From the NCBI GenBank assembly GCA_021776805.1, contig JAJFFD010000210.1, positions 6,908-70,907 on the forward strand: a DNA stretch of 64,000 bases. The letters run 5' to 3'. The notes beneath the pieces are model-generated. The model was not told the origin of the DNA and made no database searches. It worked only from the letters and a program-made list of their open reading frames with translations. This document shows, piece after piece, positions 8,932 through 26,539 of this stretch (position 1 is the stretch's first letter; each line of letters starts with the position of its first letter). The translations under genes and the position numbers were made by a program. Source of the DNA: Planctomycetota bacterium (GTDB lineage: Bacteria; Planctomycetota; UBA1135; UBA2386).

Positions 8932-11900
8932 TCAGGAACGATCGATAGCCAGGTTCACGAAGTGAATCTTCGTACCTGGCGGAGCCTTCAGAGTCAGAGT
9001 TAGAAAGGCGACAGATTCTCGTTCTGGCCCAGGGATCTCGATGATCGCCGTGTGTAGAGCCTGGCGACCGTGATCCCGTGGCAGGCTGAGGTCTTCGAGT
9101 ACCAATGCGTCCCAGGTAGCGTCTTCGGTGCGGAGATGAGCACTCAGCTGGGCGATCGTCTCTGCCGGCGCATCGGCTTCGAATCCGAGACAGATGCGCA
9201 TGGCGGAGTTGCCGGGAGGTAGGAGCAGAGGGACGACCAGCTCATCCTTCCCATCATCACTGGCTGTCATGCTATGGGTCTCGCCATAGCGAACCGAGTC
9301 CATGAGGAGAACATTGCTGTCCTGTCGGCCCGGCAGTCGGACCTGCTGTCGAGGGATCGCTCGCGGCACTAGGAGCAAGCGATCGAGCTCAGCGGTCCAC
9401 TCTCCACCATCGCCAACCAGGTCTATTTGCAAGCTATGCCTATTCAGGCTGGGTGAGAGGTCGATCTGCGCGAGGATTTCCTTTGGGCCGATCGGAATCC
9501 TTGTCACGATCCGTTCCTCGGCGTCGATCAAGAAGCTCATGTTCCCGCTGCCGGGGCCTTGCTTGCGAACTCGCACGAAGAGGCGTCGGGGATCATCGCT
9601 TGCCGGTACCAGAAACTCGCCGCGAATGCCGGCTCCCCTGGTCGGCCGCATGATCATTCGAAATCCCGAATCGTGCTTTGTGACGGAGCCCAGTCCTTGA
9701 CTCTGCCCGCCAAGTGGTAGGGGCTGGGGTCGATCGAAACGCATGGAGAACCAGCGGGAGCTGCCCAGGTTCATCAGCTCGACTCCCAAGTAGTCGAGTC
9801 GGAGATTCGCGCGTCCATCGTCGCTGCTCTGCAAGTCACGAATCGCCCAAAGCAGTTCGCCATGAATGGTTGCCAGGGAGGGGGCGCTGTCACCGTCGAG
9901 GCTGGCCGCCGAGCGGAAGAGGTCGCCTTCATTCCCTGGAGTGAATGGTGTCCGCGGTGTTGGCGTAATTGGAGATAGCCTGAGGAAGTGCGCCAGGGTT
10001 GACGAGTCTTGAATTTTGACGAAGGGCCGTCGCCCTTCGAATTCCCAATAGATGATGCACCCGCTGCCTGGGAGGCCTGGCTCGGCGTGCGACATTGCCC
10101 TCGACTCGAGAAGTAGATCGCCGCGATCCGGAAGGGAGTCGAAGGGAATGCGGTACAGAGTTCGTCCTTCCTGCAGCGATGACAACTGCAGCTGCCGTCG
10201 GCTGCGAGAGTTCGCATTTCGGGTCGAGCGATTCTGGGGCGGCTTGATTCGCAACTGGTCAGACCAACCCGCGCGGATGAGATTGACTCCCGCCAATCCA
10301 CTGGGGACATGGCCACGTCCCTCAGCGCTCAGCGCCAGTTCGCCGAAATTGCCGTTCTGGGGATCGCGCAGATCGTGCAGGTCATAGAGGCTGTCGACCA
10401 ATTCGAGCAGGGCCTGTCCCGAGCTCAAGAGCGAGCCGTCCACACTACGTTCTGGGACCAGGATACAGGGCAACGACCTGCCCTCCGCGCCCGCCGGCAG
10501 GGTGATGCGTTGCGGGCCGAGTACGCCACTGTGCACGATGAAGAGCAGATCTAGATCAGGATCCTGCAAGCCCATCTCTGCGAGGGACTGCGTTGCAGAC
10601 TTTGCGAGGAGCTCACCAGCAGTTCCAGGATCCGCGGAGAGGGATGAGGAGAGCAGCTGGCTGCGTTGCACATCGAGAGTCCTCCCCCGAATCTCACTCA
10701 ACCCACCCGACATGTTCTGCAGGAGGGTTCTGACCGAACCCGCAGTCATTCGTGTTTCGGGTCCCGGGGTCAATCGATACTGCGGGCCACCGAAGAAGAT
10801 CTGGTTGAGAACCTGTTTGTCCGCGCGAATCGGCGCGTCTGCCAGAGAGAGAGGCAGAATCAAGATGTCGATGACAGAATCCGGATTGCGAAGCGAGCGA
10901 CCCTCTCCCAACTCGGCAACAGACGCGGTCTCGCCTTGGCTTCGATAGAGAATGTGTGCCAGGTTGACCGGATCTGGTGAAGAGGCTGGAACCGAGAAAG
11001 TGAGCGGGAGGTTGCCGTCACGCCAGAGCCTTGGATCGGACAGCTTCAGGCGGACTGCGTGGATACCCTGCAGGTCTTCGCCATCTTCATGCAGTAGCAA
11101 GTCGTCGGTGCTGATGCGAACCCTGCCAGTTAGCAAGAACTCCAAGTCGACGTTTGTGCTCTGAGCTCCTACGGGGAGGGCGTAGGTCAGGCTCTGCTCA
11201 CCAGCTATTCTGCGTGCGTTCTCTCGTCCGTCCGCGAAGCGCACTACCGTGGATCCATCATCACCAACGAGCGCGATCTCCGCGTCGTCGCCGGAGTCCA
11301 GGCGATCCATGCTTCCCAGGCGAATGCTTCTAAACCCAGTCGGCGGAACGGTACTCAGTCGAGCACCTTCCTGATGGATGATTCGGGCACGAAGTTCTGC
11401 TCCCGCTGCAAGCCCTGAGACCAAGACTCCTTCTGTGCCGCGGAGGATGCCCTGTTCCGATTCAATGAGATCGATGCTTTGCAGAACGCCGCGTGCCGTG
11501 GAGATTTCAGCGGTAACCTTGGCTTCCGGACTGAGGGGGCCGCGCAATCGGGCGCTAGGCACCCAAGTCTGATCCATGCTGATCTGCGTGGGTGGCAGGA
11601 ACTCAATGCTGGCGACAAGTTCTGGAACCAGGTCGAGGCCCGCCCTCAGCTGCTGGCTCGTGAACTCGCCAAGTTCCACGCCATTGACCGTGAGCAGGAA
11701 GGACTCGAAGTCGGGCGGGAAGTCACGAAAGGTGATGCTGGCAGGCTGCTGGAACTCTGCATGACTCAGGACTCGGAAGGAAATCTCACCTTCGATCACC
11801 GTCAAGTCTTCGAACCAGAGTGCGTCCAGCCCTTGAGAATCCTGCTTGGCGATTTGGACCACGCCCTGGCCCAGACTTGCGCGCACTTCCTCGACCATCG

Positions 11901-13911
11901 CGATGGCGGCACTCTTGCCCCAAAGGAGGGATTCGGGCTTTGAAGCCTCAGGGCTCCAGCCAGCATCATCCGCAGTCAGGCCGGCTCGTAGGGCGGCCGC
12001 ACCCCTTTCCAGCCACTCGCCCCGGCCCAGGAGTTCGTAGCCTCGGAGGTAGACCCCCGCCGCCAGAGCTTCGACCGGGTCTCCCCAGATCACTGCATCG
12101 TTGCCCCGGCTCAGCCCGCCCTGCTGCTGGCCCGGCATCCAGCCAGGAGTCCAAACCTGCTGATGAAAGCTGATGGCAGAAAGGAAATCGTCTGCTCTGT
12201 CCAGGAGCGAGGGGTCCCCGCTGGCATCGATGAGAATCAAGCAGGCTCGCGCTGCCAGGCAGAGGAGAAAGGGGTTGCGGGTGTTGTTGCCGCTGCGCGG
12301 GTCGACGAGCCCTGGGCTTTCGCCAGGTGCTCGTATGGGCGCCGGCCAGACCGCCTTGGCCAAGGCCTCGACTTCGAGAAAGTCGATCGCCTTGCGGGCG
12401 GCTGCCAGGACCCGTTCGTCTTTGGTCTGACTGGCATACTCGGCCAGGAACATCGCCGGACCGGCTGTGTCCGCTGCCCACTTGGGATCTTCGAGAGGCT
12501 CGAGGAATTCGCGACCATACCAGACCGGTATGGCCCCATTGCTGTGCTGATTGAGGAGGAAGAAGTAGGCCAGTTTCCTGCAGGCTTCGAGACTATCGGC
12601 GCGTCGTTCCGGGAGGAGCTCGGCTGTCTTCAGCATCCAGTATCCGGAGACTGCGGAGTCCAGTCCGTGATGTCCCAGTGCCGAAGATGCTTCGGTGGAT
12701 CCGAGTTCCCATGTGTTGCGCGTCGCATCGACGCTGGACGCGAAGCGCGCGGGGATCAAGCCGGCTCGTCGTGGCGCAGCGAGGACCAGATCCAAGATTC
12801 GCCGCGCATAGTCCTGCAGCTCCGGTTGCGAATCCCGTGATGCGCGACTTGCCATGACGAAGGCGAGGCGGAGGAGTTGCTCTTCTGAATCGAAGCGTGC
12901 TTCGATGCCGCTGGACGCGTCCTTCAGTGCGCCCGCAGCGATCTCACCCAGATCTACTTCTTGCCAGTTTTCGGCGAGGATCCGATCGAGGTAGGCTGCA
13001 CAAATCTGCTCCCAGGTCCGTTCTTCCATGGGTGCGGCGGATCGCTTCAGGTCAGCGGACATGTAGCGTCGCCATACCTGGCTCTGTGCGGCCGCGAGAG
13101 TCTTGTGCTGAGATGCTGCTGCGTCGATCTGGAGAAAATGGCCAAAGCTGAGGGTCTCAGCTCGGACCTGCACACCCTCGGCATCGGCGCTGGTAAAGAC
13201 ACGTCGCCCAAAGGGCCCATCCGGAACCTCTTGAGCCTGTGCCATGAGGCCATGCCGAATACTTGCCGGCTTGCGACTTACGACCAGGCCCTGAGGAAGG
13301 CGCCGCTGTTGCAGGAGTAGTTCCAGATCGGGGCTGAGGGCGAGGGAGCGTGAGCCGGCGCGAAGGAAGGCCACTGGAGCCTGAAAGGCAAGATCCCCGG
13401 CGAGCTCGAATTCTCCGGGGTGGAGGTGAGGAGTGGAGCTCTCGTCGATCGGGGCTTCGCGGAGAAACTCGTAGTTCAGGCTCAACTCGAGGAGGGTGCT
13501 CCTGACTCCGACCTGGTCCAGCAAGAGCACACGCAAGTCGCCCGTCGATTCCCTCTCGATCCGGACACTGACTTCGTGACCAAGACTCGGGCGGCAATGC
13601 AGCTGCAGTGCATTCTCCTCTCTCTCGATTTCGACGAAAGGCAGGAGCTGATCTCTGCGAGCGCCTCCTCTCTCGATGGCGAGGTTTACGCCGGACAGCT
13701 TCGCTACGTCGATCGAGAGCTCGCCGGTCTTGGCGGTGAAGGTGACGGTCAAGTCCTCACCCTGACGGGCGGCGCTTACCTGCAGGCTGCTCCCCGACTG
13801 CGTTTCTGCAAACTCGAGACTGTCGTTGCCACCGCTCTTGCAGGCGAAGAGCAACAGTAGCAGCGCCAGGCAGGGGCCAGACCTGGGATCTTGGACTTGG
13901 AGCGAGGACAC
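8932..13911 (-). CDS. Giant (1659 aa) predicted lipoprotein of unknown function
   Basis: This is a single uninterrupted ORF. The N-terminus has a hydrophobic core plus lipobox (LALLLLLFAC-KSGG). Internal regions look like an alpha-helical toroid (about 12000-12780) and an M6-peptidase-like fold lacking HExxH (about 10258-10870). All long ORFs on the opposite strand within it look like GC artefacts. Confidence 0.75.
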   Translation of the reverse strand: MSSLQVQDPRSGPCLALLLLLFACKSGGNDSLEFAETQSGSSLQVSAARQGEDLTVTFTAKTGELSIDVAKLSGVNLAIERGGARRDQLLPFVEIEREENALQLHCRPSLGHEVSVRIERESTGDLRVLLLDQVGVRSTLLELSLNYEFLREAPIDESSTPHLHPGEFELAGDLAFQAPVAFLRAGSRSLALSPDLELLLQQRRLPQGLVVSRKPASIRHGLMAQAQEVPDGPFGRRVFTSADAEGVQVRAETLSFGHFLQIDAAASQHKTLAAAQSQVWRRYMSADLKRSAAPMEERTWEQICAAYLDRILAENWQEVDLGEIAAGALKDASSGIEARFDSEEQLLRLAFVMASRASRDSQPELQDYARRILDLVLAAPRRAGLIPARFASSVDATRNTWELGSTEASSALGHHGLDSAVSGYWMLKTAELLPERRADSLEACRKLAYFFLLNQHSNGAIPVWYGREFLEPLEDPKWAADTAGPAMFLAEYASQTKDERVLAAARKAIDFLEVEALAKAVWPAPIRAPGESPGLVDPRSGNNTRNPFLLCLAARACLILIDASGDPSLLDRADDFLSAISFHQQVWTPGWMPGQQQGGLSRGNDAVIWGDPVEALAAGVYLRGYELLGRGEWLERGAAALRAGLTADDAGWSPEASKPESLLWGKSAAIAMVEEVRASLGQGVVQIAKQDSQGLDALWFEDLTVIEGEISFRVLSHAEFQQPASITFRDFPPDFESFLLTVNGVELGEFTSQQLRAGLDLVPELVASIEFLPPTQISMDQTWVPSARLRGPLSPEAKVTAEISTARGVLQSIDLIESEQGILRGTEGVLVSGLAAGAELRARIIHQEGARLSTVPPTGFRSIRLGSMDRLDSGDDAEIALVGDDGSTVVRFADGRENARRIAGEQSLTYALPVGAQSTNVDLEFLLTGRVRISTDDLLLHEDGEDLQGIHAVRLKLSDPRLWRDGNLPLTFSVPASSPDPVNLAHILYRSQGETASVAELGEGRSLRNPDSVIDILILPLSLADAPIRADKQVLNQIFFGGPQYRLTPGPETRMTAGSVRTLLQNMSGGLSEIRGRTLDVQRSQLLSSSLSADPGTAGELLAKSATQSLAEMGLQDPDLDLLFIVHSGVLGPQRITLPAGAEGRSLPCILVPERSVDGSLLSSGQALLELVDSLYDLHDLRDPQNGNFGELALSAEGRGHVPSGLAGVNLIRAGWSDQLRIKPPQNRSTRNANSRSRRQLQLSSLQEGRTLYRIPFDSLPDRGDLLLESRAMSHAEPGLPGSGCIIYWEFEGRRPFVKIQDSSTLAHFLRLSPITPTPRTPFTPGNEGDLFRSAASLDGDSAPSLATIHGELLWAIRDLQSSDDGRANLRLDYLGVELMNLGSSRWFSMRFDRPQPLPLGGQSQGLGSVTKHDSGFRMIMRPTRGAGIRGEFLVPASDDPRRLFVRVRKQGPGSGNMSFLIDAEERIVTRIPIGPKEILAQIDLSPSLNRHSLQIDLVGDGGEWTAELDRLLLVPRAIPRQQVRLPGRQDSNVLLMDSVRYGETHSMTASDDGKDELVVPLLLPPGNSAMRICLGFEADAPAETIAQLSAHLRTEDATWDALVLEDLSLPRDHGRQALHTAIIEIPGPERESVAFLTLTLKAPPGTKIHFVNLAIDRS

Positions 13912-14019: not shown

Positions 14020-15369
14020 TCAGAAGGCCAGGGTGAAGATCAGGTCGACGCCGTGGTTGTCGTCGTTGCCGACGCCGGCCACGTTATCCGGATCCGCATG
14101 CTGATAGGTGTAGGTCAGCTGGGTCTTCAGAGCGTGCTTGTGATAGTAGGCACTCGCCATCAGCTGGTACTCCATGATGTCGCCTTCGGCGCCCACCGGG
14201 TATCCCACTGCTGGAGCCAGACCGAAGGGGTCATTGCCGATGCCACCTGCACCGAGAATGGGATCGCCCTGACCGCTTTCCATGCCGGCGGCGTTCATGA
14301 AGATCGGCGGATCCTTGAAGTCGATCATGCTCACCCGGGCGCCAAAGGCGTACTGGGTGCCATCGTCCGGCGGCATGGTGTAGGAGCCTTGCACGTAGAA
14401 GCCATTGGAGTCCGCGCTGGGAACACCGGCCAGGTCCGCATCATCCTTGCGAGCGAAGAACTCGCCGGCTGCCGCGAAGCCATTGCCGAGCTTGAGGGCG
14501 GCATTGAGGTTGACGGTGGTTGATTCCACGTCGCCTTGGGCAATGCCGACATCAGCGTTTCCGAAGAGGACGCTGGCGCCAAGGCTGGAGGTCATGCTTC
14601 CACTGTGTTCCAAGTCGCCTTCCGAGTAGGCCATCTCGCCCTGCGGGTCGAAGCGGACACCGACGATGTAGTTGAGCTCGTTGTCGCCGACACCAGCCCC
14701 GTCCAGGTTTGTGGATTCGGGCGCCGCTGAAATCGACCCGGCTGCCAGGTCGTTGTTCATGGTGCCGAGGAACCAGTGCAACTTCTTGCCGCCGTTATCA
14801 TCGTTGAGCCCCGAGCCGAGGAACAAAGCGCCGGTCGAACGGGCTGAACCAAAGACTCGCGTGGCGAGAGCGCGATTGCTGAACTCCTGTTTCTGGGAGG
14901 AGATCGTGCCCTGACGGCTCTCTAACATCTTCTGGGTGCCCATGCGCAGGCCCAGGGTGTAGTGGTCCGTGTTATAGAAGTTGTAGCGGACCCAGGCGTC
15001 CTTGATCGACGAGTCATCGCTGTCGATGAAGTCGGTCTGCACCTTGTAGGTGAGCTCCCGGTCCCAGACGTGGCCGCTGAAATTCATGCGAACCCGCTTG
15101 GTGCGGAAGCTGTTGGTGTCCGGATTGCTATCCAGGGCCAAGTAGTACCACTTGATCTGGAAGTAGCTCTTCAGGTTGAGTGAGAAGTCATCACCACCGT
15201 CAAAGGTGATGCCTTTGCCGGGCTGGAAGGTCACCTTTGGTGCCTGCAGCGTGCCAGCCTTGGGAGGATCTTCCCCTCCCTTCTTCTTGTCGCCATTTGG
15301 TTCGTTGCCGGCCACCGCGAATGCGGTCGTGGCCAAGACTGCGAGGCCGAATCCGATTGGACTCTTCAT
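14020..15369 (-). CDS. Outer-membrane beta-barrel porin
   Basis: 449 aa. It has a signal peptide (MKSPIGFGLAVLATTAFAVAG), alternating amphipathic beta-strand pattern with aromatic girdles, and a C-terminal ...VDLIFTLAF ending in Phe, as in OMP sorting signals. Confidence 0.75.
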   Translation of the reverse strand: MKSPIGFGLAVLATTAFAVAGNEPNGDKKKGGEDPPKAGTLQAPKVTFQPGKGITFDGGDDFSLNLKSYFQIKWYYLALDSNPDTNSFRTKRVRMNFSGHVWDRELTYKVQTDFIDSDDSSIKDAWVRYNFYNTDHYTLGLRMGTQKMLESRQGTISSQKQEFSNRALATRVFGSARSTGALFLGSGLNDDNGGKKLHWFLGTMNNDLAAGSISAAPESTNLDGAGVGDNELNYIVGVRFDPQGEMAYSEGDLEHSGSMTSSLGASVLFGNADVGIAQGDVESTTVNLNAALKLGNGFAAAGEFFARKDDADLAGVPSADSNGFYVQGSYTMPPDDGTQYAFGARVSMIDFKDPPIFMNAAGMESGQGDPILGAGGIGNDPFGLAPAVGYPVGAEGDIMEYQLMASAYYHKHALKTQLTYTYQHADPDNVAGVGNDDNHGVDLIFTLAF

Positions 15370-15631: not shown

Positions 15632-17554
15632 ATGGGTACAGAGCTCAGGAGAAGCACATGCAATCGCGACTGCCCCGATGCCTGCGGGCTGATTGCAGAG
15701 GTGGAGGATGGTCGCCTTCTAAGTCTCAAGGGTGACCCGGAGCACCCGGTTACTCGCGGCTTTCTTTGCACACGGACCAGCCGTTTTCCAGAACTCCTCG
15801 GTGGCGAGGACCGTCTGCGCCAGCCTCTCATGCGAGTGGATGGGAAGCTCCAAGCCTGCACTATGACACAGGCACTCGACTACGCTGCGGAGAGGCTCGC
15901 TGCGATTCGGGCGGAATCCGGGCCGGCAGCAATCTTCCACTATCGCTCGGGGGGGAGTCTCGGGCTGTTGAAGTCCGTGGCGGATCGCTTCTTTGAGCAG
16001 TTCGGGCCCTGCACGAGCAAGAGCGGTGACATCTGCAGTGGCGCCGGTGAAGCGGCGCAAGAGGCGGATTTTGGAGTCAGTGACAGCAACGACTTCTTCG
16101 ATCTGGATCGCAGCAAGCACATCGTCATCTGGGGCAAGAACCTTTTTGTCAGCAACATCCACCTGATTCCTCAGATTCGGAAGGCGCGGGCAGAAGGGCG
16201 GAAGGTCTGGCTCATAGACCCGGTGCACCACAAGGGCGCCAGCCTCGCCGACCGCTTTCTGCAGCCTTGTCCCGGCGGAGACCTGGACCTCGCTCTGGGT
16301 GTCATGCGAGTCCTCTTGGACCGCGATGCCTTGGACCCGAAGGCCGCGGAGTTTTGTGCCAACCTGGACGCATGCATCGAGCTGATCCGATCCAAGTCCG
16401 TTGCTGAGTACGCTCTCGCGGCGGATCTTGAGGTGGAAGCCTTGGTGGACCTGGCGGAGGCTTTTCGCGATGGGCCGACAGCCATCCTGGTGGGTTGGGG
16501 AATGCAGCGCCGTTTGGCGGGAGGGAGCATCGTTCGCGCTCTGGATGCCCTGTCCGCCCTCAGCGGCAATCTCTTCCGGCCCGGAGGCGGGAGTTCCTTC
16601 TACTTCGGGCGACGAACTGCCTTCGATGTTTCAGCGGTCAGTTCTGCTGCAGCAGCGCGCCACATTCGTGAGCCACTCTTCGGTCCAGACGTTCTCGCGG
16701 CCCAGGATCCGCCGATTCGTGCCATCTGGGTGACCGCTGGCAATCCGGTCTGCATGCTTCCGGACTCCAAGCAGGTTGCCGAAGCTCTGGAGCGGACTGA
16801 GTTCGTGGTGGTGGTCGACCCATTCCTGACCGACACAGGCAGGCGTGCTGACCTGGTCTTGCCAGTGCCCAGCCTCCTCGAGGATGATGACTTGCTCGGT
16901 GCTTATGGGCACCACTGGATTGGCGAGAGTCGACCGATTCTGTCACCACCGCCTGGAGTCCTGCACGAAGTCGAGCTCTTCCAAGGCCTGGCATCGCGCC
17001 TGGGGCTGTCGGCGGCCATGTCCGGGAGCGTAGACGAGTACAAACGGAGATTGCTGGGCAAGGTTGAGGGCCATGGGCTCAGCCTGGAGAAGCTCCGCGA
17101 GGGTCCGCAGCGGAACCCGCTTGCTACTGAGCAGCTCTTTGATGAGGCTCGCGTGCGCTCAGCCGACGGCAAGGTGCAGCTTATCTCAGAGCGTCCGGAG
17201 ACCCCTGCAGGGGCGGGGGACGCGGGCGATCTCTGGTTCTTGAGTCTCTCTAGTATTCGTTCCCAGGCCTCCCAGTGGTCGCGGGATCCCGGGGCTCTGC
17301 TGGAAGTGACGGTGCATCCGGACTCCGCTCCTGGGATGGCGACTGGAGACGAGGTCGCGGTGGAAAACGCGATGGGTTCCATACCTGCGCGCCTGATTCT
17401 GGACTCGCAGCAACGGCGTGATGTCGCCCTGTATCCGAAGGGTGGGCACTTTGATCGCGGCCAGTCGGCGAACGCACTCATTCAGGCTCGATGCACGGAC
17501 ATTGGCCTGGGTGCAGCCTTCTTGGATTGCCGCGTGAGGATTCGCAGACTGTGA
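15632..17554 (+). CDS. Molybdopterin-dependent oxidoreductase (bis-MGD family, substrate unknown)
   Basis: 640 aa. The N-terminal Cys cluster STCNRDCPDACG...GFLCTR resembles the 4Fe-4S domain of the family. It also has molybdopterin-binding core motifs (VIWGKN, WVTAGNP) and a C-terminal beta-barrel domain (LEVTVHPDSAPGMATGDEVAVENAMGSIPARL). Confidence 0.85.
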   Translation: MGTELRRSTCNRDCPDACGLIAEVEDGRLLSLKGDPEHPVTRGFLCTRTSRFPELLGGEDRLRQPLMRVDGKLQACTMTQALDYAAERLAAIRAESGPAAIFHYRSGGSLGLLKSVADRFFEQFGPCTSKSGDICSGAGEAAQEADFGVSDSNDFFDLDRSKHIVIWGKNLFVSNIHLIPQIRKARAEGRKVWLIDPVHHKGASLADRFLQPCPGGDLDLALGVMRVLLDRDALDPKAAEFCANLDACIELIRSKSVAEYALAADLEVEALVDLAEAFRDGPTAILVGWGMQRRLAGGSIVRALDALSALSGNLFRPGGGSSFYFGRRTAFDVSAVSSAAAARHIREPLFGPDVLAAQDPPIRAIWVTAGNPVCMLPDSKQVAEALERTEFVVVVDPFLTDTGRRADLVLPVPSLLEDDDLLGAYGHHWIGESRPILSPPPGVLHEVELFQGLASRLGLSAAMSGSVDEYKRRLLGKVEGHGLSLEKLREGPQRNPLATEQLFDEARVRSADGKVQLISERPETPAGAGDAGDLWFLSLSSIRSQASQWSRDPGALLEVTVHPDSAPGMATGDEVAVENAMGSIPARLILDSQQRRDVALYPKGGHFDRGQSANALIQARCTDIGLGAAFLDCRVRIRRL

Positions 17555-18915
17555 AGCGCATCACCGGCACGAACATCTACAGTATGTTCAAGTGCCCACG
17601 GATGGTGGCCTTGGATCTTCACGCCGACCGGAGTCTGCGTCGCGAAGTCCGTGCAGAAGAGGAGTTTCTTTTGCAGCGCGGGCGCGACCACGAGGCGCGC
17701 ATCGTCGCGGAATTGGGCTGGCCGGAGCCCGAGTATCCGACTGCCCAGTTCGAGCAGGGTGCCGAGCTCAGCTTGCAGATGATGCAGTCCGGCATGGAGG
17801 GGATCAGCCAGGCTGTGCTCATCGATGCGGACTACCTTGGGATTCCCGACTTGCTGCGTCGGCAAGAGGGTTCGTCCGTGTTTGGTGATTACCAATACGA
17901 AGTCGGTGACATCAAGTCCTCGAGTCGGCCGCGCAGTGATCAGGTATTGCAGGTGGCTTTCTACAGTCGTCTCCTGGGCAAGCTGCAGGCCAAGGTTCCT
18001 GAGTACGGCTACCTTGTCTTGAAGGATGGCAGCGAGGAGAGGTTTGCGCTCGGCGAACTTGACCCGGTGCTCGACGAGCTCATAGAGGACTTGTGTGCGC
18101 TCCGCGAGAATCCGGATGAAGTCGAACCCTTCTTCAGCAGGGCCTGCGATAGCTGTCTATGGTCCGACCTCTGTCTGCAGGAGATGCGCGCAGCGGGTGA
18201 TCTCTCATTTGTGCATGGCGTGACCAGGGGAATCAGGCGCTCGCTCCGTGTCGCTGGGATCGATTCCGTGACGAACTTGTCCAGGGCCAAGGTCGAGCCG
18301 GCAGCAAGGGCGTCTGGGCTCGAAGCGACCCTGCTGCGAAGACTCAAGAAGGCTGCGCAGGCAAGGATGAGTGGCGAGCCCGTTCTCGAGAAGCGCGGCA
18401 AGGGCGAGTCCCTCGGCTCTGCGGCAGTGCTGCACTTCTTGACAGACCCCTATGCGGAGCGAGTGCTCTTCATGGGTCTGCTCAGGCCTCGTGAAAACGA
18501 GGCGGAGTTCCTTGCTCACTGCCCGCAATCGGTAGAAGAGGAGCTGCCTGCCTTCGAAGACCTGCTTGCTCAGCTACCCAGTCGATTGCGGATACTCCAC
18601 TACGGCTCTGGCATTCCCCGTTGGCATGAGAATCGTGCTCACGGATCGGTGGCATCTGTGGGGTTTGAGCGTCGACTCATCGACATGGCTAGGCAACTTC
18701 GTGGGGCTGCCGTGTTTCCGGCGCCGATCTTCGGTCTTGATGAGCACGTGAGTGCCGGACTGTCCCGCGATCCGCATAGAAAGGGCAGGGCATCAGCAGC
18801 GGCCTATGCGGTCACCGATGCGCAAGATGGCGATTGGCTCATGAGCAAGGGGCGGAGTGATCTCGAGGACTTACTCGCTCTCAAGGAGCGGTACTTGGGA
18901 GACGAAGAGGATTGA
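17551..18915 (+). CDS. RecB/Cas4-like PD-(D/E)XK nuclease with 4-Cys Fe-S signature (TM0106-type)
   Basis: I place the start at GTG 17551, overlapping the upstream stop (GTGA). The ORF opens earlier at 17491 but would then overlap the upstream gene. Motifs seen are FKCPRM (N-terminal Cys), GIPDLL, YEVGDIKSS (D/ExK), QVAFY (QxxxY) and CDSCLWSDLC (CxxCx5C). The C-terminal half carries an HhH-like GVTRGIRRSLRVAGIDSV. Confidence 0.75.
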   Translation: MKRITGTNIYSMFKCPRMVALDLHADRSLRREVRAEEEFLLQRGRDHEARIVAELGWPEPEYPTAQFEQGAELSLQMMQSGMEGISQAVLIDADYLGIPDLLRRQEGSSVFGDYQYEVGDIKSSSRPRSDQVLQVAFYSRLLGKLQAKVPEYGYLVLKDGSEERFALGELDPVLDELIEDLCALRENPDEVEPFFSRACDSCLWSDLCLQEMRAAGDLSFVHGVTRGIRRSLRVAGIDSVTNLSRAKVEPAARASGLEATLLRRLKKAAQARMSGEPVLEKRGKGESLGSAAVLHFLTDPYAERVLFMGLLRPRENEAEFLAHCPQSVEEELPAFEDLLAQLPSRLRILHYGSGIPRWHENRAHGSVASVGFERRLIDMARQLRGAAVFPAPIFGLDEHVSAGLSRDPHRKGRASAAAYAVTDAQDGDWLMSKGRSDLEDLLALKERYLGDEED

Positions 18916-20780
18916 AGTCCCTGTCCCTTGAAGAACGCCTGATTCGCTTCCTCGAACGCGAAGAAGAGGATGAGCGGAAGAGTTCCCGAGACCTGCGCGC
19001 CTTGGCCATTGAAGAGCGTGTGCTAGAAGGGGAGTGTATTCGTGATGCGATTCTGCGTGAGCAGCAAGGTGATCGCTTCACCTTCAGCCTGGAAGAAAAC
19101 CTCAGCAAGTTTAGGAACGGCGACCCATTGACAGTGGGTGATGGCTTGGATTTTCAGGAGGCTTGCCCGCTGGTCTATGGGGACTATGACTCGATCGAGA
19201 GGAAGCTGATTCTGCGGCGAGACCCCTTCCAGCGTGGAGCCACACCGAGACTCGTGCCGGGTGTTAGTTACTGCATCGATCGGCGCCACTTGGGTATCCG
19301 CGGGCGCTTGCGTGATGTAGTTCGAGCTGCCTTCGAAGATGAGCTCCTCGCCTCGGTCCTGATGGGGGAGCACAAGCCCGAGCGCGACGAGGAGCGTCTC
19401 TTGCGCGCGCAAGAAGCTTTGAGCAAACGTGGTCTCAACGAGACTCAGTTCCTTGCGGGCACGAATGCCATTGCCAGCGATAGCTTGTCCTTGATCCAGG
19501 GGCCTCCGGGCACCGGCAAGACTCGACTCCTCGCTGAGATCATGCGAGTGCTCTGTGCATCGGGATGCAAGATCGCTCTCAGCGCCTTCACGCATCGTGC
19601 GGTTGACAATGCTCTCATGGCTCTCGCGCGGATCGCTCCGGAAATTCCCTTGGTGAAGTTAGGTCGGCCCGGACCTGGGACCCAAGCTCTCACGCGTGCA
19701 GGGATTCGCTTCGAAGATCCGCGACGGGGCCGGATGCCCCAGGAAGGCGCGGTAGTCGCCGGGACTTGCTTCGCTCTCGCCAAGTTGCCCGCTAGAGAAC
19801 GCTTTCATTTCACCGTCTTTGACGAAGCCGGTCAGCTGCCGATTCCGCACGCCTTGGCGGGGATGTTGCTCGCGCGTCGCTGGATCTTCTTTGGTGATCA
19901 TCGTCAGCTCCCGCCGGTGATCACGGCTGAGCATGTCGATCGGGAAGTCCAGCAGTCCATCTTTGAGCGGCTACACGGGTTTTATGGCGGCGACATGCTC
20001 GATGAGACCTACCGCATGAACGATGCGCTTTGCGCGGTCGTGAGCGATCTCTTCTATGGCGGCGGCCTCAAGTCAGCGCCTTCGTCGGCAGCACGTCGCC
20101 TGAGTTTCACTGCCGGTGGCAAGCTCGACGCTGTCCTGGATCCAGAGCACTCCGTGGTCTTCGCCAGGGTCGATCATCTGCAACCGGGGCAGAGGTCCAC
20201 GGAAGAAGCTAGATTGGTGGCGGACCTAGTGGCGGACTTGATCGAACATCATGGACTCGAGCCTGAGTCCCTTGGGGTGATCGCCCCCTTTCGGGCTCAG
20301 GTTCGCTTGCTGCGGGCAAGTTGCCAGCGGCGCGGGGTGAGGGATCTGGACAAGATCACCATCGACACCGTCGAACGCATTCAGGGGCAGGAGAGAGAGG
20401 TGATCATTCTCTCGCTTGCGGTGGGAGATCCAGACACTCTCAATGCGCGTGCGGCCTTCTTCTTCTCCAAGAACCGTCTCAACGTCGCGTTGTCCAGAGC
20501 GCGGAGCAAAGCCATTCTCGTCGCTTCCTCCGCTGCCTTCCGCGCGCTGCCACAAGACCCTGACAGCCTTCGGGCGGTCGCGGTTTTTCGTCGACTGGCT
20601 ACAGAGCTGCATCAGGTCGATCTCAGCTCACTCTATTGCAGCAGTTCTGACAGCAAGCCTGCGAAGGAACGGAAATCAAAAGCCGATCGCAGCCAGGGCA
20701 AGGTAGCCAGCAAAAAGCAAGAGGCCGAGAGCCAGGCCAAGCAGGAAGGTACGCAGGAAATGGGCGAAGCCGCCATGTAG
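18912..20780 (+). CDS. Superfamily 1B (Upf1/Dna2-like, AAA_11/AAA_12) DNA helicase
   Basis: 622 aa. The TTG start overlaps the nuclease stop (TTGA). Helicase motifs seen are GPPGTGKT, VFDEAGQ, GDHRQLPPV, ETYRMN, TIDTVERIQGQEREVIILS and NVALSRAR. The tail is Lys/Glu-rich. Confidence 0.85.
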   Translation: MKSLSLEERLIRFLEREEEDERKSSRDLRALAIEERVLEGECIRDAILREQQGDRFTFSLEENLSKFRNGDPLTVGDGLDFQEACPLVYGDYDSIERKLILRRDPFQRGATPRLVPGVSYCIDRRHLGIRGRLRDVVRAAFEDELLASVLMGEHKPERDEERLLRAQEALSKRGLNETQFLAGTNAIASDSLSLIQGPPGTGKTRLLAEIMRVLCASGCKIALSAFTHRAVDNALMALARIAPEIPLVKLGRPGPGTQALTRAGIRFEDPRRGRMPQEGAVVAGTCFALAKLPARERFHFTVFDEAGQLPIPHALAGMLLARRWIFFGDHRQLPPVITAEHVDREVQQSIFERLHGFYGGDMLDETYRMNDALCAVVSDLFYGGGLKSAPSSAARRLSFTAGGKLDAVLDPEHSVVFARVDHLQPGQRSTEEARLVADLVADLIEHHGLEPESLGVIAPFRAQVRLLRASCQRRGVRDLDKITIDTVERIQGQEREVIILSLAVGDPDTLNARAAFFFSKNRLNVALSRARSKAILVASSAAFRALPQDPDSLRAVAVFRRLATELHQVDLSSLYCSSSDSKPAKERKSKADRSQGKVASKKQEAESQAKQEGTQEMGEAAM

Positions 20781-20821: not shown

Positions 20822-22858
20822 TCACTGGAGCCCTTCGACGAGAGAGAGATAGTCTTCTTCGCTGAGCACCTGCAAGCCGAGCTTCTTGGCCTTCTCGAGT
20901 TTCGATCCGGCCTTGCTGCCGGCGACCACGTCCGTCACCTTCTTGGTGATGGAGTTGGAGGTCTTGGCACCCATGCCTTCGACCAGGATCTTTGCCTCGT
21001 CTCGGGACATGCTGTTCATGCCGCCGGTAAAGCAAAAGATGCGCCCGCTGAGTGGTCCGGATGTGCTGCTCTTGCCGGCAGTCTTGACGCGCATACCCGC
21101 GGCGTGGATCTTTTCGAGAAAGCGCTCAGTCTGCTTCCTGTCAAAGAAACTACGGATCGACTTGGCAACTTCCTCGCCAATTCCCTCGACCTCGATGAGT
21201 TGCTCTGAGCTGGCTTCACGAATCGCTGCGAGAGATCCCAGAGTCTCTGCCAGATCCTTGGCGGTCTGTTCGCCGACGTGTCGAATGCCGAGCCCGTATA
21301 GGAAGCGAGGCAGCTCCGGCTGTTTGGCTTTCTCGAGTTCCTTGACCAGATTGTCGAAGGAGCGCTCTGCCCAGCGATCGAGGGCGAGAATCTCATCTCG
21401 CCTTTGGTCGAGGGTGAAGACATCTTCCAAGCTCTTGATCAGACCTGCATCCATGAGCTGATCGACGTACTTCGGCCCCAGACGAATGATTTCCAGGGCG
21501 CGGCGCGAAGCAATATGCACAACATGCCCCTTCAACTGGTCCGGGCACTCCAGATTGACGCAGTAGAGGAAGGCACCTTCCTTTTCGAGTTCGCCGTCAC
21601 AACTGGGACAGGAGTCCGGGGGGTCAGTTGGCTGGGACTGCTTGCTTCGCTTGTTCAGGTCGACGGCGATGACAGCAGGGATCACGTCTCCCGCACGCTC
21701 GATCTCGACCTGGTCTCCGGCGCGGACGTCGCGCTCCTTGAGTAAATCCCAATTGTGCAAGGTAGCCCGGCGGACGGTGACTCCCGCCAGTTCGACAGCC
21801 TCGAGGTTTGCGACCGGCGTAATCGTGCCTGTGCGGCCCACCTGGGCGACGATCGAATCCACACGCGTTGTTGCTCGCTGCGGCGCGAACTTGTGGGCGA
21901 GGATCCAGCGTGGGTTGCGGGCAGTGCGACCCAGGCGTCGCTGTAGTTCGAAGTCGTTGAGCTTGGCGACGATGCCGTCCATGTCGTAGTCGATCTCTGC
22001 CCGCCGGGCTTCGAGTTCGTCGTGGAAGGCGATGACCTCCTCCAGGCTATTGACCACTGCAAACTGAGAGGAGACCTTGAATCCGAAGCCTTGAATGCGC
22101 TTCCGCAGCTCCTCGTGCGTTGCCGCCTGCAGCCCTTCGCTCTGCCCAATACCCCAGAAGATGAACTCGAGCCCTCGCTTGGCGACAATCCTCGGGTCGA
22201 GCAGCTTCAAAGAGCCTGCAACCGTGTTGCGTGGATTGCGGAATTGAGTTTCGCCCCTGGTCTCCGACTCGGTCTGCAGTCTTGCGAAGGCCTTACGACT
22301 GAGCATGACCTCGCCGCGAACCTCGATGATCTTCGGTGGCTGATCAGTCTCGCTGCTGCGGTGTAGGTGAAGAGGTAGGTTGCGGATCGTCTTCAAGCTC
22401 TGAGTGATGTCCTCCCCTTGGGCGCCATCGCCTCGCGAGAGCCCGCGAACCAGGATCCCATCTTCATAGAGCAGATTTGCGCTGACGCCGTCGAACTTCG
22501 GTTCGAGAGCCCAGCCAAGATCAATGCTGGATTCTCCCTCTTCTTCGAGCATGCGACCTGCCCTCTGCCCGAATTCTCGCACCTCATCGTCACTGGTAAG
22601 GGACTCGATTGAAAGCATTGGGAGCAGATGCGCAGCCTTCTTGAAGTTGCTTCCCTTGGGCAGGGGTGCGCCAACTCGCTGTGTCGGCGAGTCCTCACGC
22701 AACAAGTCCGGATTGGCGGCCTCGAGTTCCTGGAGTTCGCGAAAGAGCCGGTCGTACTCCTCGTCACTGATTTCAGGTCGACCCTCGTTGTAGTACAGAT
22801 GCGAGGCCTGCTCGAGCTTTGCGCGCAGTTTCTCGGCCTCTTTGCTCGCCTTTGACAC
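20822..22858 (-). CDS. ligA: NAD-dependent DNA ligase LigA
   Basis: 678 aa with full LigA architecture. The adenylation region contains the EPKFDG (KxDG) motif. It also has an OB fold, a Zn finger (CPSCDGELEKEGAFLYCVNLECP), HhH repeats and a C-terminal BRCT (GRIFCFTGGMNSMSRDEA). Confidence 0.97.
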   Translation of the reverse strand: MSKASKEAEKLRAKLEQASHLYYNEGRPEISDEEYDRLFRELQELEAANPDLLREDSPTQRVGAPLPKGSNFKKAAHLLPMLSIESLTSDDEVREFGQRAGRMLEEEGESSIDLGWALEPKFDGVSANLLYEDGILVRGLSRGDGAQGEDITQSLKTIRNLPLHLHRSSETDQPPKIIEVRGEVMLSRKAFARLQTESETRGETQFRNPRNTVAGSLKLLDPRIVAKRGLEFIFWGIGQSEGLQAATHEELRKRIQGFGFKVSSQFAVVNSLEEVIAFHDELEARRAEIDYDMDGIVAKLNDFELQRRLGRTARNPRWILAHKFAPQRATTRVDSIVAQVGRTGTITPVANLEAVELAGVTVRRATLHNWDLLKERDVRAGDQVEIERAGDVIPAVIAVDLNKRSKQSQPTDPPDSCPSCDGELEKEGAFLYCVNLECPDQLKGHVVHIASRRALEIIRLGPKYVDQLMDAGLIKSLEDVFTLDQRRDEILALDRWAERSFDNLVKELEKAKQPELPRFLYGLGIRHVGEQTAKDLAETLGSLAAIREASSEQLIEVEGIGEEVAKSIRSFFDRKQTERFLEKIHAAGMRVKTAGKSSTSGPLSGRIFCFTGGMNSMSRDEAKILVEGMGAKTSNSITKKVTDVVAGSKAGSKLEKAKKLGLQVLSEEDYLSLVEGLQ

Positions 22859-23484: not shown

Positions 23485-24378
23485 ATGGCCGCGATGGTGA
23501 CGATGGAACTGCGAGAAACTCCGTCCATTGCGCTCGACAGGGACCGTTTCATGGCCCTTGCCGCGAGCCACTACGAAAACTTTCCTGTCGGCTCGGTTCT
23601 CGTGCCCAGGAAGCTACGTCGACATGTGCACAGGCTCTATGCCTTCGCACGAACCGCGGACGACATAGCGGACGAGGAACAGGACCCGGTCCTGCTTGCA
23701 GCCTACCGCCAGAGCTTTCTCGAGCATGTGCAGGGTGAGGTAGCGGAGCCGATCCCCCTATTCATTGATCTTGCGGCCACCATCCACGAATTGCATCTGC
23801 CCTTGCCGCTGTTCACGGCCCTTCTCGATGCTTTTGCCCAGGACCTCGAGAAAGGCCGTTACTGTGAGTCGGAGCTCTTTGCTTACTGCCGTCGCTCGGC
23901 GGACCCGGTAGGGCGTCTCGTCTTGCGGATCTTTGACCGGCCTGGAGAAGACCTCGCGCAGCTCTCGGATCAAATTTGCACGGCGCTGCAATTGGTCAAT
24001 CACTTGCAGGACATGGCTTCGGATTATCGGGACAGGAATCGGATCTACTTCCCGCAAGAGGATCTCGAGAGATTCGCCGTGTCCGAGAAGGACCTGGAAG
24101 CTGGTTCAGCCTCGCCAGAGCTCCGGCGCCTGGTTCTGCATTGGTCGAGTCGTTGCACGGAGATGCTGGTTGCCGGCTGGCCGCTTACCAACACGGTGCC
24201 GGGCAGGTTGAGCATGGAGCTGCGCGCGGTGATTCGTGCTGCGGCCGCAGTCCTGGCGGGCATCAGAGCCGTCGATGGGGATGTGCTGGCAAATCGGGTG
24301 CGCCTGGGAAAGTGGCAGAAGTTCTCCATACTTCTGTCGGCCATGATGACTCGTCGGATGCCGGAGTCTCTGTCTTGA
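23485..24378 (+). CDS. hpnC: Hydroxysqualene synthase HpnC (squalene/phytoene synthase family)
   Basis: 297 aa. It carries HYENFPVGSVLVPRKLRRHVHRLYAFARTADDIADE (Asp-rich motif 1) and a second motif, QLVNHLQDMASD. It is the first gene of an hpnC-D-E triad. The start could be one of several nearby Met codons. Confidence 0.85.
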   Translation: MAAMVTMELRETPSIALDRDRFMALAASHYENFPVGSVLVPRKLRRHVHRLYAFARTADDIADEEQDPVLLAAYRQSFLEHVQGEVAEPIPLFIDLAATIHELHLPLPLFTALLDAFAQDLEKGRYCESELFAYCRRSADPVGRLVLRIFDRPGEDLAQLSDQICTALQLVNHLQDMASDYRDRNRIYFPQEDLERFAVSEKDLEAGSASPELRRLVLHWSSRCTEMLVAGWPLTNTVPGRLSMELRAVIRAAAAVLAGIRAVDGDVLANRVRLGKWQKFSILLSAMMTRRMPESLS

Positions 24379-25247
24379 TCGCCGAGGAGAGCAGCCTGGA
24401 GTCACCGGCGGAGGTGACGCGCTCCTCGGGTTCGAGCTTTCTCGTTTCCTTTGCTTTCCTCAGCAAGGAGCGGCGGGCTGGTATCTCGGCAATTTACGCC
24501 TTCTGCCGCGCCGTCGATGATGCGGTCGACGAAGCCGAGAATCACGCTGCAGCTGTGCGGAGACTGGCCTTTTGGCGTGCCGAGCTCGACAAGGTGAATC
24601 GGCGTGAGGCCGGATCTCCGATTGGGCGAGCGCTGCAGGAGACCATCGAACGCTTCGGTGTTTCTCCGGCGCATCTGGAGACAATCCTGGCGGGAATTGG
24701 CTCCGATTTGGATGAGAGGACCTTTGCGAACTGCGAAGCCTTGGAGGAATACTGCTTCAAGGTGGCCTCCGCCGTCGGGCTGGCTTGCTTGCCAGTCTTC
24801 GGCGTCTCAGGCCCTGCTGCAGAGCGTTATGCCGACCGCCTGGGCCTGGCCCTGCAGCTCACCAACATCCTCCGTGATGTGCGATCCGATGCCCTGGAGG
24901 GACGCGTCTATCTGCCGCAGGACCGATTGCGCTCGGCCTATGTGGAGACAGCCTGGCTGAAGGGCGAAGGTCCAGAACAGGTCTATCGTGTGGATGGCCC
25001 GGTCCACCAGCTTTTCCAGGGCATGGTAGCGATCGCTCGGCAGCGCTTTGCAGAAGCCAGCGCCGCCCTCTCCGATGACATTCGCCGAGCCCTTCTGCCC
25101 GCGGAGATCATGGCCTCGGTCTATGCCGAGCTACTGCAAATGATCGAGGGGGAAGGCTGGCAATTGAACCGTCAACAGCGACTTCGGGTCAGCAAGCCGC
25201 GGCGCGTCCTGCTTGCCCTCCGCACCTGGTGGCGAGGGCATAGGTGA
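24375..25247 (+). CDS. hpnD: Presqualene diphosphate synthase HpnD
   Basis: Motifs seen are SSFLVSFAFLSKERRAGISAIYAFCRAVDDAVDE and LQLTNILRDVRSDALEGRVYLP. I place the start at TTG 24375, overlapping the hpnC stop (TTGA). The longer ORF from 23976 would lie inside hpnC. Confidence 0.85.
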   Translation: MIAEESSLESPAEVTRSSGSSFLVSFAFLSKERRAGISAIYAFCRAVDDAVDEAENHAAAVRRLAFWRAELDKVNRREAGSPIGRALQETIERFGVSPAHLETILAGIGSDLDERTFANCEALEEYCFKVASAVGLACLPVFGVSGPAAERYADRLGLALQLTNILRDVRSDALEGRVYLPQDRLRSAYVETAWLKGEGPEQVYRVDGPVHQLFQGMVAIARQRFAEASAALSDDIRRALLPAEIMASVYAELLQMIEGEGWQLNRQQRLRVSKPRRVLLALRTWWRGHR

Positions 25248-26539
25248 AACGAGCCCTCGTTCTGGGTGGCGGTGTGGCAGGAATCGCCGCTGCCTTCGGT
25301 CTTCGCGATCGAGGTTATGCGGTCCGGCTTCTCGAGGCGCATTCCTGGTTGGGCGGACGAGCCTTCTCTCCACCGGCCAAGGGCGATGGAGCCCGGCCGG
25401 ACAACGGGCCACACGTCATGCTCGGTTGCTACGAGCACATGCGTGCCCTCCTCAGGCGACTCGGCACCGAGGCTGAGTTCGGAGCGGGCGAAGGCCTCTG
25501 TCTCGAGTACCAGAGCGTCGGCGGGCCGAGGCTTCGGCTGGAGTTGGCCGCGATGAGTCCAAACCTGGCTCTGCCCCTGGCGCTGCTGAAGTTTCCGGCC
25601 TTCAGTCTCTGGGAGAAGCTCAAGATCTGTCTCGGCCTGCCGGCAACCTACCTGGCCGGAAAGAACCGTAGCTTGGAAAGATGGCTGCAGCGATACCGCC
25701 AGGGGACGCAGATTCGAGCATATCTCTGGGATCCCCTCTGCCGGGCGATCATGAATGCGGAGGCATCGCAGGTGGACGCCGGGGTCTTCTTCAAGACCTT
25801 GCGCCGCGCCTTTGGGGGCTCGGCTGCAGACGCGGCGATTTGGCTGCCTCGTAAGCCGTGGTCCGAACTCATCGGTGAACCGGCCTTCGATGTCTTGTCG
25901 GCGGCCGGGGTCGAGGTGAGTCTCGGCCGTCGCGTCGCCGCTCTGCAGTTCGAGGATGGGCAGCTCTCGGGGATCGATCTGGCGGGAGGCGATTCTCTTC
26001 GGCTGGAATCAGGTGAGATCGTGTTTTCGGCACTTCCCTGGCATGTCTTGGCTCGCCTGATACCTGGCGGCCTGCCTGCAGCTGCAATCGCGAGTTCTGC
26101 GATTCTCTCCGTCTACTGCCAAACGGCAGAGAGGCAGGGCATACCCGCGTCTCCTTTGCTGGTGCTGGTCGACGGAGAGCCCTTCCACTTCTTCTGCCGT
26201 CGTGTCGCTGCGCCGCTGGGTGAGTTTGCCCTGCTAGCAGCTGGCGCCGAGTCCCTGCGTGGCAAGTCTGTGGATGCGATCTGTGCGATTGCTCGAGACC
26301 AGTTGCAGAGGTACTTCCCTGATCTCCCTGCAGACGCGGATATCAAGATGCAGGTGCTGCGTGAAGATCGGGCGACAATGATCGTCGCTCCCGGTGATGA
26401 ACGGCACCGACCGCCGCCGGGTCTCCTCGAGGGATTCACAAACTTCTATCTGTGCGGAGATTGGACAGCCACCGGTCTGCCTTCGACCCTCGAGTCTGCC
26501 GCCGAATCGGCGACTAGAGCGATCGCAGATCTGAGGTAA
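25244..26539 (+). CDS. hpnE: Hydroxysqualene dehydroxylase HpnE (FAD-dependent amine-oxidase fold)
   Basis: 431 aa. The GTG start overlaps the hpnD stop (GTGA). It has an N-terminal dinucleotide-binding motif [37 protein letters not shown] and a C-terminal LCGDWT motif. Confidence 0.85.

Follow-up and report, generated by a model that had tools for sequence, protein, structure and literature searches.

A split TM0106-family nuclease and Dna2-like helicase in Planctomycetota with a probable role in 5' end processing

Two overlapping genes on the forward strand of a 64,000-nucleotide stretch of DNA from a Planctomycetota bacterium (the whole stretch is referred to here as the window) encode a nuclease of the TM0106 family and a superfamily 1B (SF1B) helicase. 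Sequence comparisons indicate that the pair is a split version of a common fused TM0106-helicase protein, and it probably constitutes a two-subunit Dna2-like nuclease-helicase with a vertically inherited core function, most likely 5' end or flap processing in repair or replication. The identity and architecture of the two proteins are much more certain than their biological role, which is the least certain step. An earlier note on the window had described the genes as Dna2 domain logic distributed over two polypeptides, and single-gene fusions that align colinearly with the nuclease followed by the helicase proved to be abundant.

The nuclease and helicase genes

Both open reading frames (ORFs) lie where the earlier note had placed them and on the same strand (+), with the gene for the 454-residue nuclease at 17551-18915 and the gene for the 622-residue Dna2/Upf1-like helicase at 18912-20780. 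With a score of 146.9 bits (E = 8.6e-43), the nuclease exceeded the curated cutoff of 97.45 for TIGR03491, the model named "TM0106 family RecB-like putative nuclease", which upholds its assignment to the TM0106 family; the match spans model positions 4-357 of 462 only. The Cas4 and PDDEXK_1 models, proposed earlier as a further check, did cover the nuclease core but scored below threshold. The scores were 21.8 bits against a cutoff of 65 for TIGR00372 (Cas4) and 18.8 against 22.7 for PF01930 (Cas4), and the Cas4 models of PADLOC matched the nuclease domain at 4.7e-07.

Residues 1-215 of the nuclease (17551-18195, +) are assigned to a Cas4/Dna2-type PD-(D/E)XK nuclease domain with a four-cysteine "iron staple" on the basis of invariant alignment columns and Foldseek comparisons. 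Every motif quoted in the earlier note was found, with FKCP, GIPDLL, EVGDIKSS, QVAFY and CDSCLWSDLC in the nuclease and GDHRQLPPV in the helicase. GIPDLL contributes D100 (17848-17850, +), GDIK contributes D120 and K122 (17908-17910 and 17914-17916, +), and QVAFY contributes Q134 and Y138, while the cysteines are C15 (17593-17595, +) and C199, C202 and C208 (within 18145-18174, +). Together with E48, these residues are invariant or nearly so in 28-34 homologues, and D100, D120, K122 and the four cysteines are also conserved in the best 150 representatives of the family in a library of 1.84 billion proteins. An AlphaFold2 model of the nuclease (predicted local distance difference test score, pLDDT, of 94) had Cas4 as its best Foldseek match (8d3l, 1.6e-06), followed by Cas4 4r5q and then by the Dna2 nuclease-helicase 5eaw. 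The conservation of the cysteines and nuclease motifs in orthologues and the nearness of the model to Cas4 and then Dna2 agree with the proposed iron-sulfur (Fe-S) nuclease of the Cas4 type. A profile search of the PDB with the nuclease family gave no match, and hence this kinship to Cas4 and Dna2 is visible at the fold level only.

The model suggests that the iron-staple PD-(D/E)XK domain is followed by a helix-hairpin-helix (HhH)-like linker domain (residues 216-280; 18196-18390, +) and then by an RNase H-like domain of the DnaQ/YprB type (residues 281-454; 18391-18912, +). The linker is made up of helical segments in the AlphaFold2 model. Weak Foldseek matches of the nuclease model to RadA chains may be attributed to the HhH region of RadA, and the HhH model PF14520 (HHH_5) is recorded for one nuclease homologue, P0008.

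The helicase matched the Pfam models AAA_12 (9.4e-34) and AAA_11 (1.4e-21), and all of its SF1 motifs are invariant in 29 homologues, including GPPGTGKT, DEAGQ, GDHRQLPP, QGQERE and the SRAR motif VALSRAR. The Walker A motif GPPGTGKT occupies residues 197-204 (19500-19523, +), and motif III, GDHRQLPPV, occupies residues 328-336 (19893-19919, +), with G328, D329, H330, Q332, L333, P334 and P335 invariant. Mouse DNA2 is the best match in the PDB both by sequence (7.1e-40, compared with 1.6e-24 for IGHMBP2 and about 1e-22 for Upf1) and by fold (5ean, E = 8.6e-37, TM-score on the query 0.65 over 627 columns, with an identity of about 22%). These comparisons place the protein with the Dna2 subfamily, in keeping with its earlier description as an SF1B helicase of the Upf1/Dna2 family. 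Residues 1-170 (18912-19421, +) are predicted to form a module of long helix, beta-barrel and stalk, as judged from the secondary structure of the AlphaFold2 model and from an hhalign alignment to positions ~562-740 of the fused proteins. The last 45 residues (578-622; 20643-20777, +) form a tail rich in Lys, Glu and Gln that is probably disordered (pLDDT below 50 at residues 578-604 and 615-622). Most helicase orthologues are 572-590 residues long and do not have this tail.

The two genes meet in the sequence TTGA (18912-18915, +), in which the TTG start of the helicase gene at 18912 overlaps the TGA stop of the nuclease gene (18913-18915). This overlap had been noticed from the sequence of the window, and the orthologous helicases bear it out in that they begin at the position of TTG 18912 (consensus M-x-LSLEQRLLRFL). 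Since the nuclease orthologues begin at the residue equivalent to GTG 17551 (consensus M/V-K/R-R-I-T-G-T), that codon is taken as the true start of the nuclease gene, and an alternative start at ATG 17491 was rejected on the same grounds. The stop-to-start spacing between the nuclease and helicase genes in orthologous loci ranges from -47 to +123 nucleotides, and it is +9 nucleotides or less in 13 of the 18 loci in which the start can be placed.

Fused relatives and the RNase H-like domain

A profile search with the nuclease family returned 8496 relatives, many of which are 1110-1190 residues long and have an N-terminal TM0106 module. Of the best 150 representatives, 33 have at least 1000 residues with the module in that position, and an SF1 helicase domain was found toward the C-terminus in five of the six long representatives that were scanned. 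With a profile of 32 fusions, at least 7309 proteins were recovered in turn, distributed over Chloroflexota, Actinomycetota, Gemmatimonadota, Saccharimonadales and further phyla; fused forms also occur in Sericytochromatia and on plasmids from Alphaproteobacteria, Pseudomonas and further genera. The TM0106-helicase fusions make up a very large prokaryotic family that spans many phyla and many plasmids, which answers in the affirmative the question of whether single-gene versions exist. The fused proteins (~1140 residues) carry the same NCBI name as the short nuclease. Rv1251c may be a fused member as well, and the papers on Rv1251c do no more than list the gene.

When the helicase family was compared with the fused family by hhalign (probability 100, E = 3.8e-61), residues 12-577 of the helicase aligned to positions 562-1134 of the fusion, a stretch that includes the N-terminal barrel and stalk module. 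The split point thus appears to be the domain boundary after the RNase H-like domain. The helicase also matched P0254 with 31% identity (5e-40). Fused and split forms share the predicted order of Fe-S Cas4-like nuclease, HhH domain, RNase H-like domain, barrel and stalk, and SF1B helicase, and neither form shows variation in the nuclease residues and cysteines. They differ in that the fusions are single polypeptides whereas the planctomycete form is encoded by two genes, and in that TIGR03491 is matched over its full length by the fused protein that was scanned (3-462) but over a shorter stretch by the window nuclease. Because the fusions join the same modules, they provide strong Rosetta-stone evidence that the two planctomycete gene products work together. 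One short protein, P0088, was tried as a stand-alone relative and rejected, as it is followed by ORFs of 253 and 367 residues (AAA_11/AAA_12) on a long-read contig of 4x coverage (L078, 5001-8516); it is probably a fused gene broken by assembly frameshifts and not a natural split.

The most marked difference between the two forms concerns the RNase H-like domain. The earlier note had read the second half of the nuclease (~18200-18915) as an RNase H-like fold that might be inactive. The fold is present from about 18391, but 18196-18390 belongs to the HhH linker instead. In an alignment to canonical and fused members, the positions of the first acidic motif, DxE, read H295-F-L297 (18433-18441, +) and are followed by a conserved T-D299-P, so that the earlier statement that this motif reads FLTDPY rather than DxE is essentially correct. 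At the two DxE columns, H is found in 20 and L in 26 of 28 clade members, and the motif II glutamate is also replaced in the window nuclease. By contrast, the fused relatives show no variation at the exonuclease residues D324-x-E326, E393, D422 and Y488/D492. Among the 150 best representatives, DxE is kept in all 33 fused and all 21 intermediate-length proteins, while it is missing from 51 of the 89 short ones (400-599 residues).

Several other observations bear on this domain. PF13482 (RNase_H_2) scored 63-89 bits in six long relatives that were scanned, most of them fused, but it was not detected in the window nuclease, in which acidic catalytic residues expected of the family (DxE and the motif II glutamate) are lost. 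Weak Foldseek matches link the nuclease model to proteins with an RNase H fold, namely DnaQ (8h18), retroviral integrases and MrfB. The domain is the least conserved part of the nuclease, with a mean identity to the window protein of 37% compared with 52% for the nuclease domain. The loss of DxE and of a further acidic residue throughout the clade, set against their retention in fused and intermediate forms, supports the suspected inactivation and suggests that the window protein belongs to a divergent subfamily of TM0106 proteins with a degenerate RNase H-like site. It is possible that the DxE-less domain has a structural role as a scaffold or as a surface on which the helicase docks, probably through its barrel and stalk module, since that module directly follows the RNase H-like domain in the fused proteins. 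The short proteins without DxE include some that are labeled as non-planctomycete, such as P0228 from Gemmatimonadota, and a metagenome scan with P0228 for split, exonuclease-dead forms outside the Planctomycetota returned nothing.

Comparison with known nuclease-helicases

Eukaryotic Dna2, as represented by mouse DNA2 (PDB 5eax and 5ean), resembles the planctomycete pair in that an iron-staple nuclease fold is combined with an SF1B motor and lies N-terminal to it. Dna2 is a single polypeptide, whereas the window pair is encoded by two ORFs with overlapping stop and start codons, and Dna2 has neither the HhH nor the RNase H-like domain. Dna2 has additional N-terminal elements, an OB-fold and alpha-helical elements, and acts in partnership with RPA. 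The multi-subunit helicase-nucleases AddAB, RecBCD and AdnAB offer another parallel, and AddB has the same iron-staple nuclease. Their main motors are UvrD-like and belong to superfamily 1A, and RecD is an accessory motor of the SF1B type, whereas the planctomycete motor is of the Dna2/Upf1-like type; RecD models matched the helicase at the Walker A region only.

In structure, the N-terminal domain is closest to Cas4 (8d3l, 4r5q), with which it shares the four-cysteine cluster and the PD-(D/E)XK motifs. The window nuclease differs from Cas4 in its TIGR00372 score, which is below the cutoff, and in having two extra domains and a helicase partner. CRISPR arrays and cas genes are not known to accompany the TM0106 family. 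A scan of the window with Tandem Repeats Finder, though not with a dedicated CRISPR detector, revealed no array of periodic repeats, and no cas genes were called in the syntenic loci.

The only characterized bacterial DNA2-like enzyme is Bad of Geobacillus stearothermophilus (WP_053413574), a helicase-nuclease of 1245 residues that was shown to be an Fe-S endonuclease of single-stranded DNA and a processive 5'-3' motor, with a physiological role that is unknown (Wilkinson et al. 2020, PMC7430649). Compared by description, Bad and the planctomycete pair both join an Fe-S RecB-type nuclease to an SF1B helicase and have a conserved central region. Bad is one protein, and according to the published study (PMC7430649) no homology of its central domain to known domains could be detected, whereas the central region of the planctomycete nuclease is recognizably HhH and RNase H-like. 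The "second class in Mycobacteria/Rhodococcus" mentioned in that study may correspond to the TM0106 fusions.

By analogy with DNA2 and Bad, the planctomycete helicase would load on a 5' single-stranded end or flap and translocate 5' to 3' with ATP. The strand would then be cut endonucleolytically by the PD-(D/E)XK domain of the partner, which, as in Cas4, AddB, Dna2 and Bad, would be stapled by a 4Fe-4S cluster with C15, C199, C202 and C208 as its ligands.

The family, its kinship to Cas4 and the helicase fusions are already known in annotation databases, and JGI labels such helicases "Dna2". Four features appear to be new: the enzyme is split, its exonuclease site is lost throughout the clade, a stable core-genome setting contrasts with the plasmids and islands that carry the fusions, and the coupling to a molybdoenzyme gene is conserved. 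The planctomycete pair would be a natural separation into nuclease and motor subunits in which one of two nuclease sites has been switched off. Such a pair could be useful for assigning activities to single domains and for testing by what means a Dna2-type motor and an iron-staple nuclease are coupled. It could also help to decide between repair, to which the stable context described here points, and defense, to which the context of the fused relatives points, as the function of bacterial Dna2-like enzymes.

Genomic context and biological role

The 87 close homologues of the nuclease, which are about 455 residues long, come from Planctomycetota wherever a source name is given, and the same holds for the close homologues of the helicase. 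Related loci numbered 73, all in metagenome-assembled genomes (MAGs) and nearly all labeled Planctomycetota; the scan used one genome per species, and the counts that follow were taken over informative loci. The helicase gene lies directly downstream of the nuclease gene in 37 of 61 loci, including the most divergent group (35-38% identity), in line with the expectation that the two genes are syntenic in related genomes. It is displaced by 1.5-4.7 kb (within 5 kb) by unrelated genes in nine loci and was not found within the available flank of 2.5-6 kb in the remaining 15. In one sub-lineage, a membrane protein of about 450 residues is often inserted between the two genes. Synteny of the nuclease and helicase genes is therefore frequent but not obligatory.

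The pair is the distal part of a three-gene block headed by the gene for a 640-residue cytoplasmic molybdopterin oxidoreductase of the dimethyl sulfoxide reductase superfamily with an N-terminal 4Fe-4S domain (15632-17554, +). This protein matched the Pfam models Molybdopterin (5.2e-34), Molybdop_Fe4S4 (1.5e-10) and Molydop_binding (1.3e-07) and reached no NCBIfam equivalog. The GTG start of the nuclease gene overlaps the TGA stop of the oxidoreductase gene (17552-17554) in the sequence GTGA (17551-17554, +), an overlap that is absent from the earlier note. The oxidoreductase gene is directly upstream of the nuclease gene in 54 of 70 loci, and in 38 of 55 loci the start that fits best gives a four-nucleotide NTGA overlap. 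The junction of oxidoreductase and nuclease is more strongly conserved than that of nuclease and helicase, and it persists where the helicase gene has moved away. The nuclease-helicase pair would be transcribed at the distal end of the block, often with translational coupling. Rfam, tandem-repeat, promoter-pattern and terminator-pattern scans gave no signal above chance. Across the clade, the block recurs as a protein of about 1600 residues and a porin on the minus strand followed by the oxidoreductase, nuclease and helicase, with LigA and squalene-synthase genes beyond it in closer relatives.

A repair or replication role is favored because the context of the pair is stable, its composition is native and its conservation is like that of the ligase. 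The identity of the nuclease to its homologues co-varies with the identities of the oxidoreductase, helicase and LigA (r 0.75-0.87; 0.84 for nuclease and helicase), and the helicase is as conserved as the essential ligase LigA (mean identity of 58.6% and 59.8%, respectively). The GC content of the pair, both overall and at third codon positions (GC3), is indistinguishable from that of neighboring genes. No integrase, transposase or toxin genes were found in the annotated syntenic loci, a phage collection held no homologue of the nuclease, and matches to PADLOC models were confined to generic helicase or Cas4 cores. A function in repair or replication, through the processing of 5' ends or flaps, would fit these properties better than a mobile anti-phage role.

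The fused relatives differ in this respect, as they are found in plasmid and island contexts whereas the planctomycete genes have a stable chromosomal housekeeping context. Full-length fused relatives occur on at least 59 plasmids, and of 89 plasmid records with a match, 26 are classed as conjugative. In all six fused contexts that were examined (L082-L087, among them the plasmids NZ_CP034922.1, NZ_CP140847.1 and NZ_CP118613.1), the gene lies among genes for resolvases, transposases or integrases, BrxE, toxin-antitoxin pairs (VapBC, ParE), HNH or other (non-specific) endonucleases, SNF2 or SIR2. The family as a whole may be read as mobile and possibly defensive. On plasmid pRlX2 of Rhizobium johnstonii, the fused gene adjoins imuA-imuB-dnaE2-dinB and is annotated as two overlapping coding sequences, possibly as a result of a frameshift.

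One alternative to a repair role is that the planctomycete pair is an anti-phage or anti-plasmid effector that unwinds and degrades invading DNA and has become fixed at one chromosomal site in the lineage. The plasmid-borne and conjugative fused homologues, with their mobile, BrxE, toxin-antitoxin and endonuclease neighbors, speak for it. There is also a suggested precedent in Bad, whose gene neighbors that of a Type III-like methyltransferase, in Nhi-type enzymes and in DNA2-like fusions associated with BRIGADE systems, and the helicase core resembles the helicase domains of MkoA, PLuB, DpdJ and ProA. These family matches are partial, however, and involve the helicase only, with scores far below the cutoffs (PLuB 201.4 against 999, ProA 61 against 1500, Hhe 24.5 against 2000). 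The alignment to MkoA of the Mokosh system is limited to profile positions 770-1097 of 1112, that to DpdJ is likewise partial, and the match to Nhi (E = 0.0034) is confined to the Walker A region. The window locus lacks the hallmarks of the fused contexts and keeps its housekeeping neighbors in 73 species-level genomes down to 35% identity, and its divergence tracks that of LigA, its composition is native and no homologue of the nuclease turned up in the phage collection, all of which make a defense role in this lineage unlikely. We consider it far more improbable that the machine is directed at RNA, with the helicase serving in RNA surveillance or R-loop removal in the manner of Upf1, IGHMBP2 and Sen1. 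Those three proteins are strong relatives by structure and sequence, TIGR00376 (the IGHMBP2 family) is matched at 176.7 bits, and the partner protein has an RNase H-like fold. Yet that score is below the cutoff of 348.9, DNA2 is the top fold match and has a sequence E-value about 15 orders of magnitude lower than that of any RNA helicase, the partner is of the Cas4/AddB/Dna2 type of DNA nuclease and its RNase H-like site is degenerate.

It is also conceivable that the two proteins are neighbors and not partners, the nuclease working with the oxidoreductase or being merely co-expressed with it, the helicase being an independent Dna2/Upf1-like motor and the overlap of their genes reflecting compaction. 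The persistence of the oxidoreductase-nuclease overlap where the helicase gene has moved, the unrelated genes between nuclease and helicase in a sub-lineage and the existence of a stand-alone TM0106 protein without a helicase neighbor (P0090) would fit such an arrangement. It is nevertheless quite improbable in view of the thousands of fusions that join the same two modules in the same order, the adjacency kept in the most divergent planctomycete group and the covariation of the two identities, and no fused homologue examined adjoins a molybdoenzyme gene (none of six with context). A different and rather doubtful idea is that the conserved unit is the three-gene block as such, with the oxidoreductase functionally tied to a Dna2-like Fe-S nuclease-helicase, and that a mobile fusion of the defense type was domesticated, split and stripped of its exonuclease in one planctomycete lineage. 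If that were the case, the module might provide redox- or Fe-S-linked control of DNA-end processing, or it might couple the reduction of oxidized or N-oxidized bases to their excision. The strongly conserved translational coupling to a molybdoenzyme might indicate a new connection of redox metabolism with DNA processing.

Some observations weigh against a two-subunit Dna2-like enzyme dedicated to repair or replication. The helicase gene is displaced or outside the flank in 24 of the 61 loci; co-translation would therefore not be essential, and the two proteins might be less tightly linked than proposed here. The conserved D299, E331, H350 and D378 of the RNase H-like domain could form a non-canonical active site. 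Since the fused relatives occur on plasmids and in neighborhoods rich in mobile and defense genes, the ancestral role of the family may be defense. In addition, the searchable literature yielded no paper on the TM0106 family or TIGR03491, no biochemical or genetic data on its proteins and no characterized member. A two-subunit nuclease-helicase for 5' end or flap processing nonetheless remains the reading that we prefer.

The genes that flank the block show several further features. The gene for the NAD-dependent DNA ligase, ligA (20822-22858, -), converges on the helicase gene with a gap of 41 nucleotides, and this convergence is kept in closer relatives but not in the most divergent group. 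The adjacency may be fortuitous, or it may hint at a connection with the processing of nicks or flaps. On the other side, a 1659-residue protein (8932-13911, -) and the product of an ORF at 14020-15369 (-) have no NCBIfam match and hold conserved positions across much of the clade; counterparts of the latter in syntenic loci are called Porin_O_P. Some MAG records with the planctomycete synteny block (L033, L007, L009, L025, L027 and others) are titled "Luminiphilus sp." or "candidatus Brocadiaceae", and these titles are probably binning or labeling errors. Two tandem genes of the squalene/phytoene-synthase family and a gene of the amine-oxidase family occupy 23485-26539 of the window and may be interpreted as resembling the hpnC/hpnD/hpnE squalene pathway, and a peroxiredoxin gene comes next in syntenic loci.

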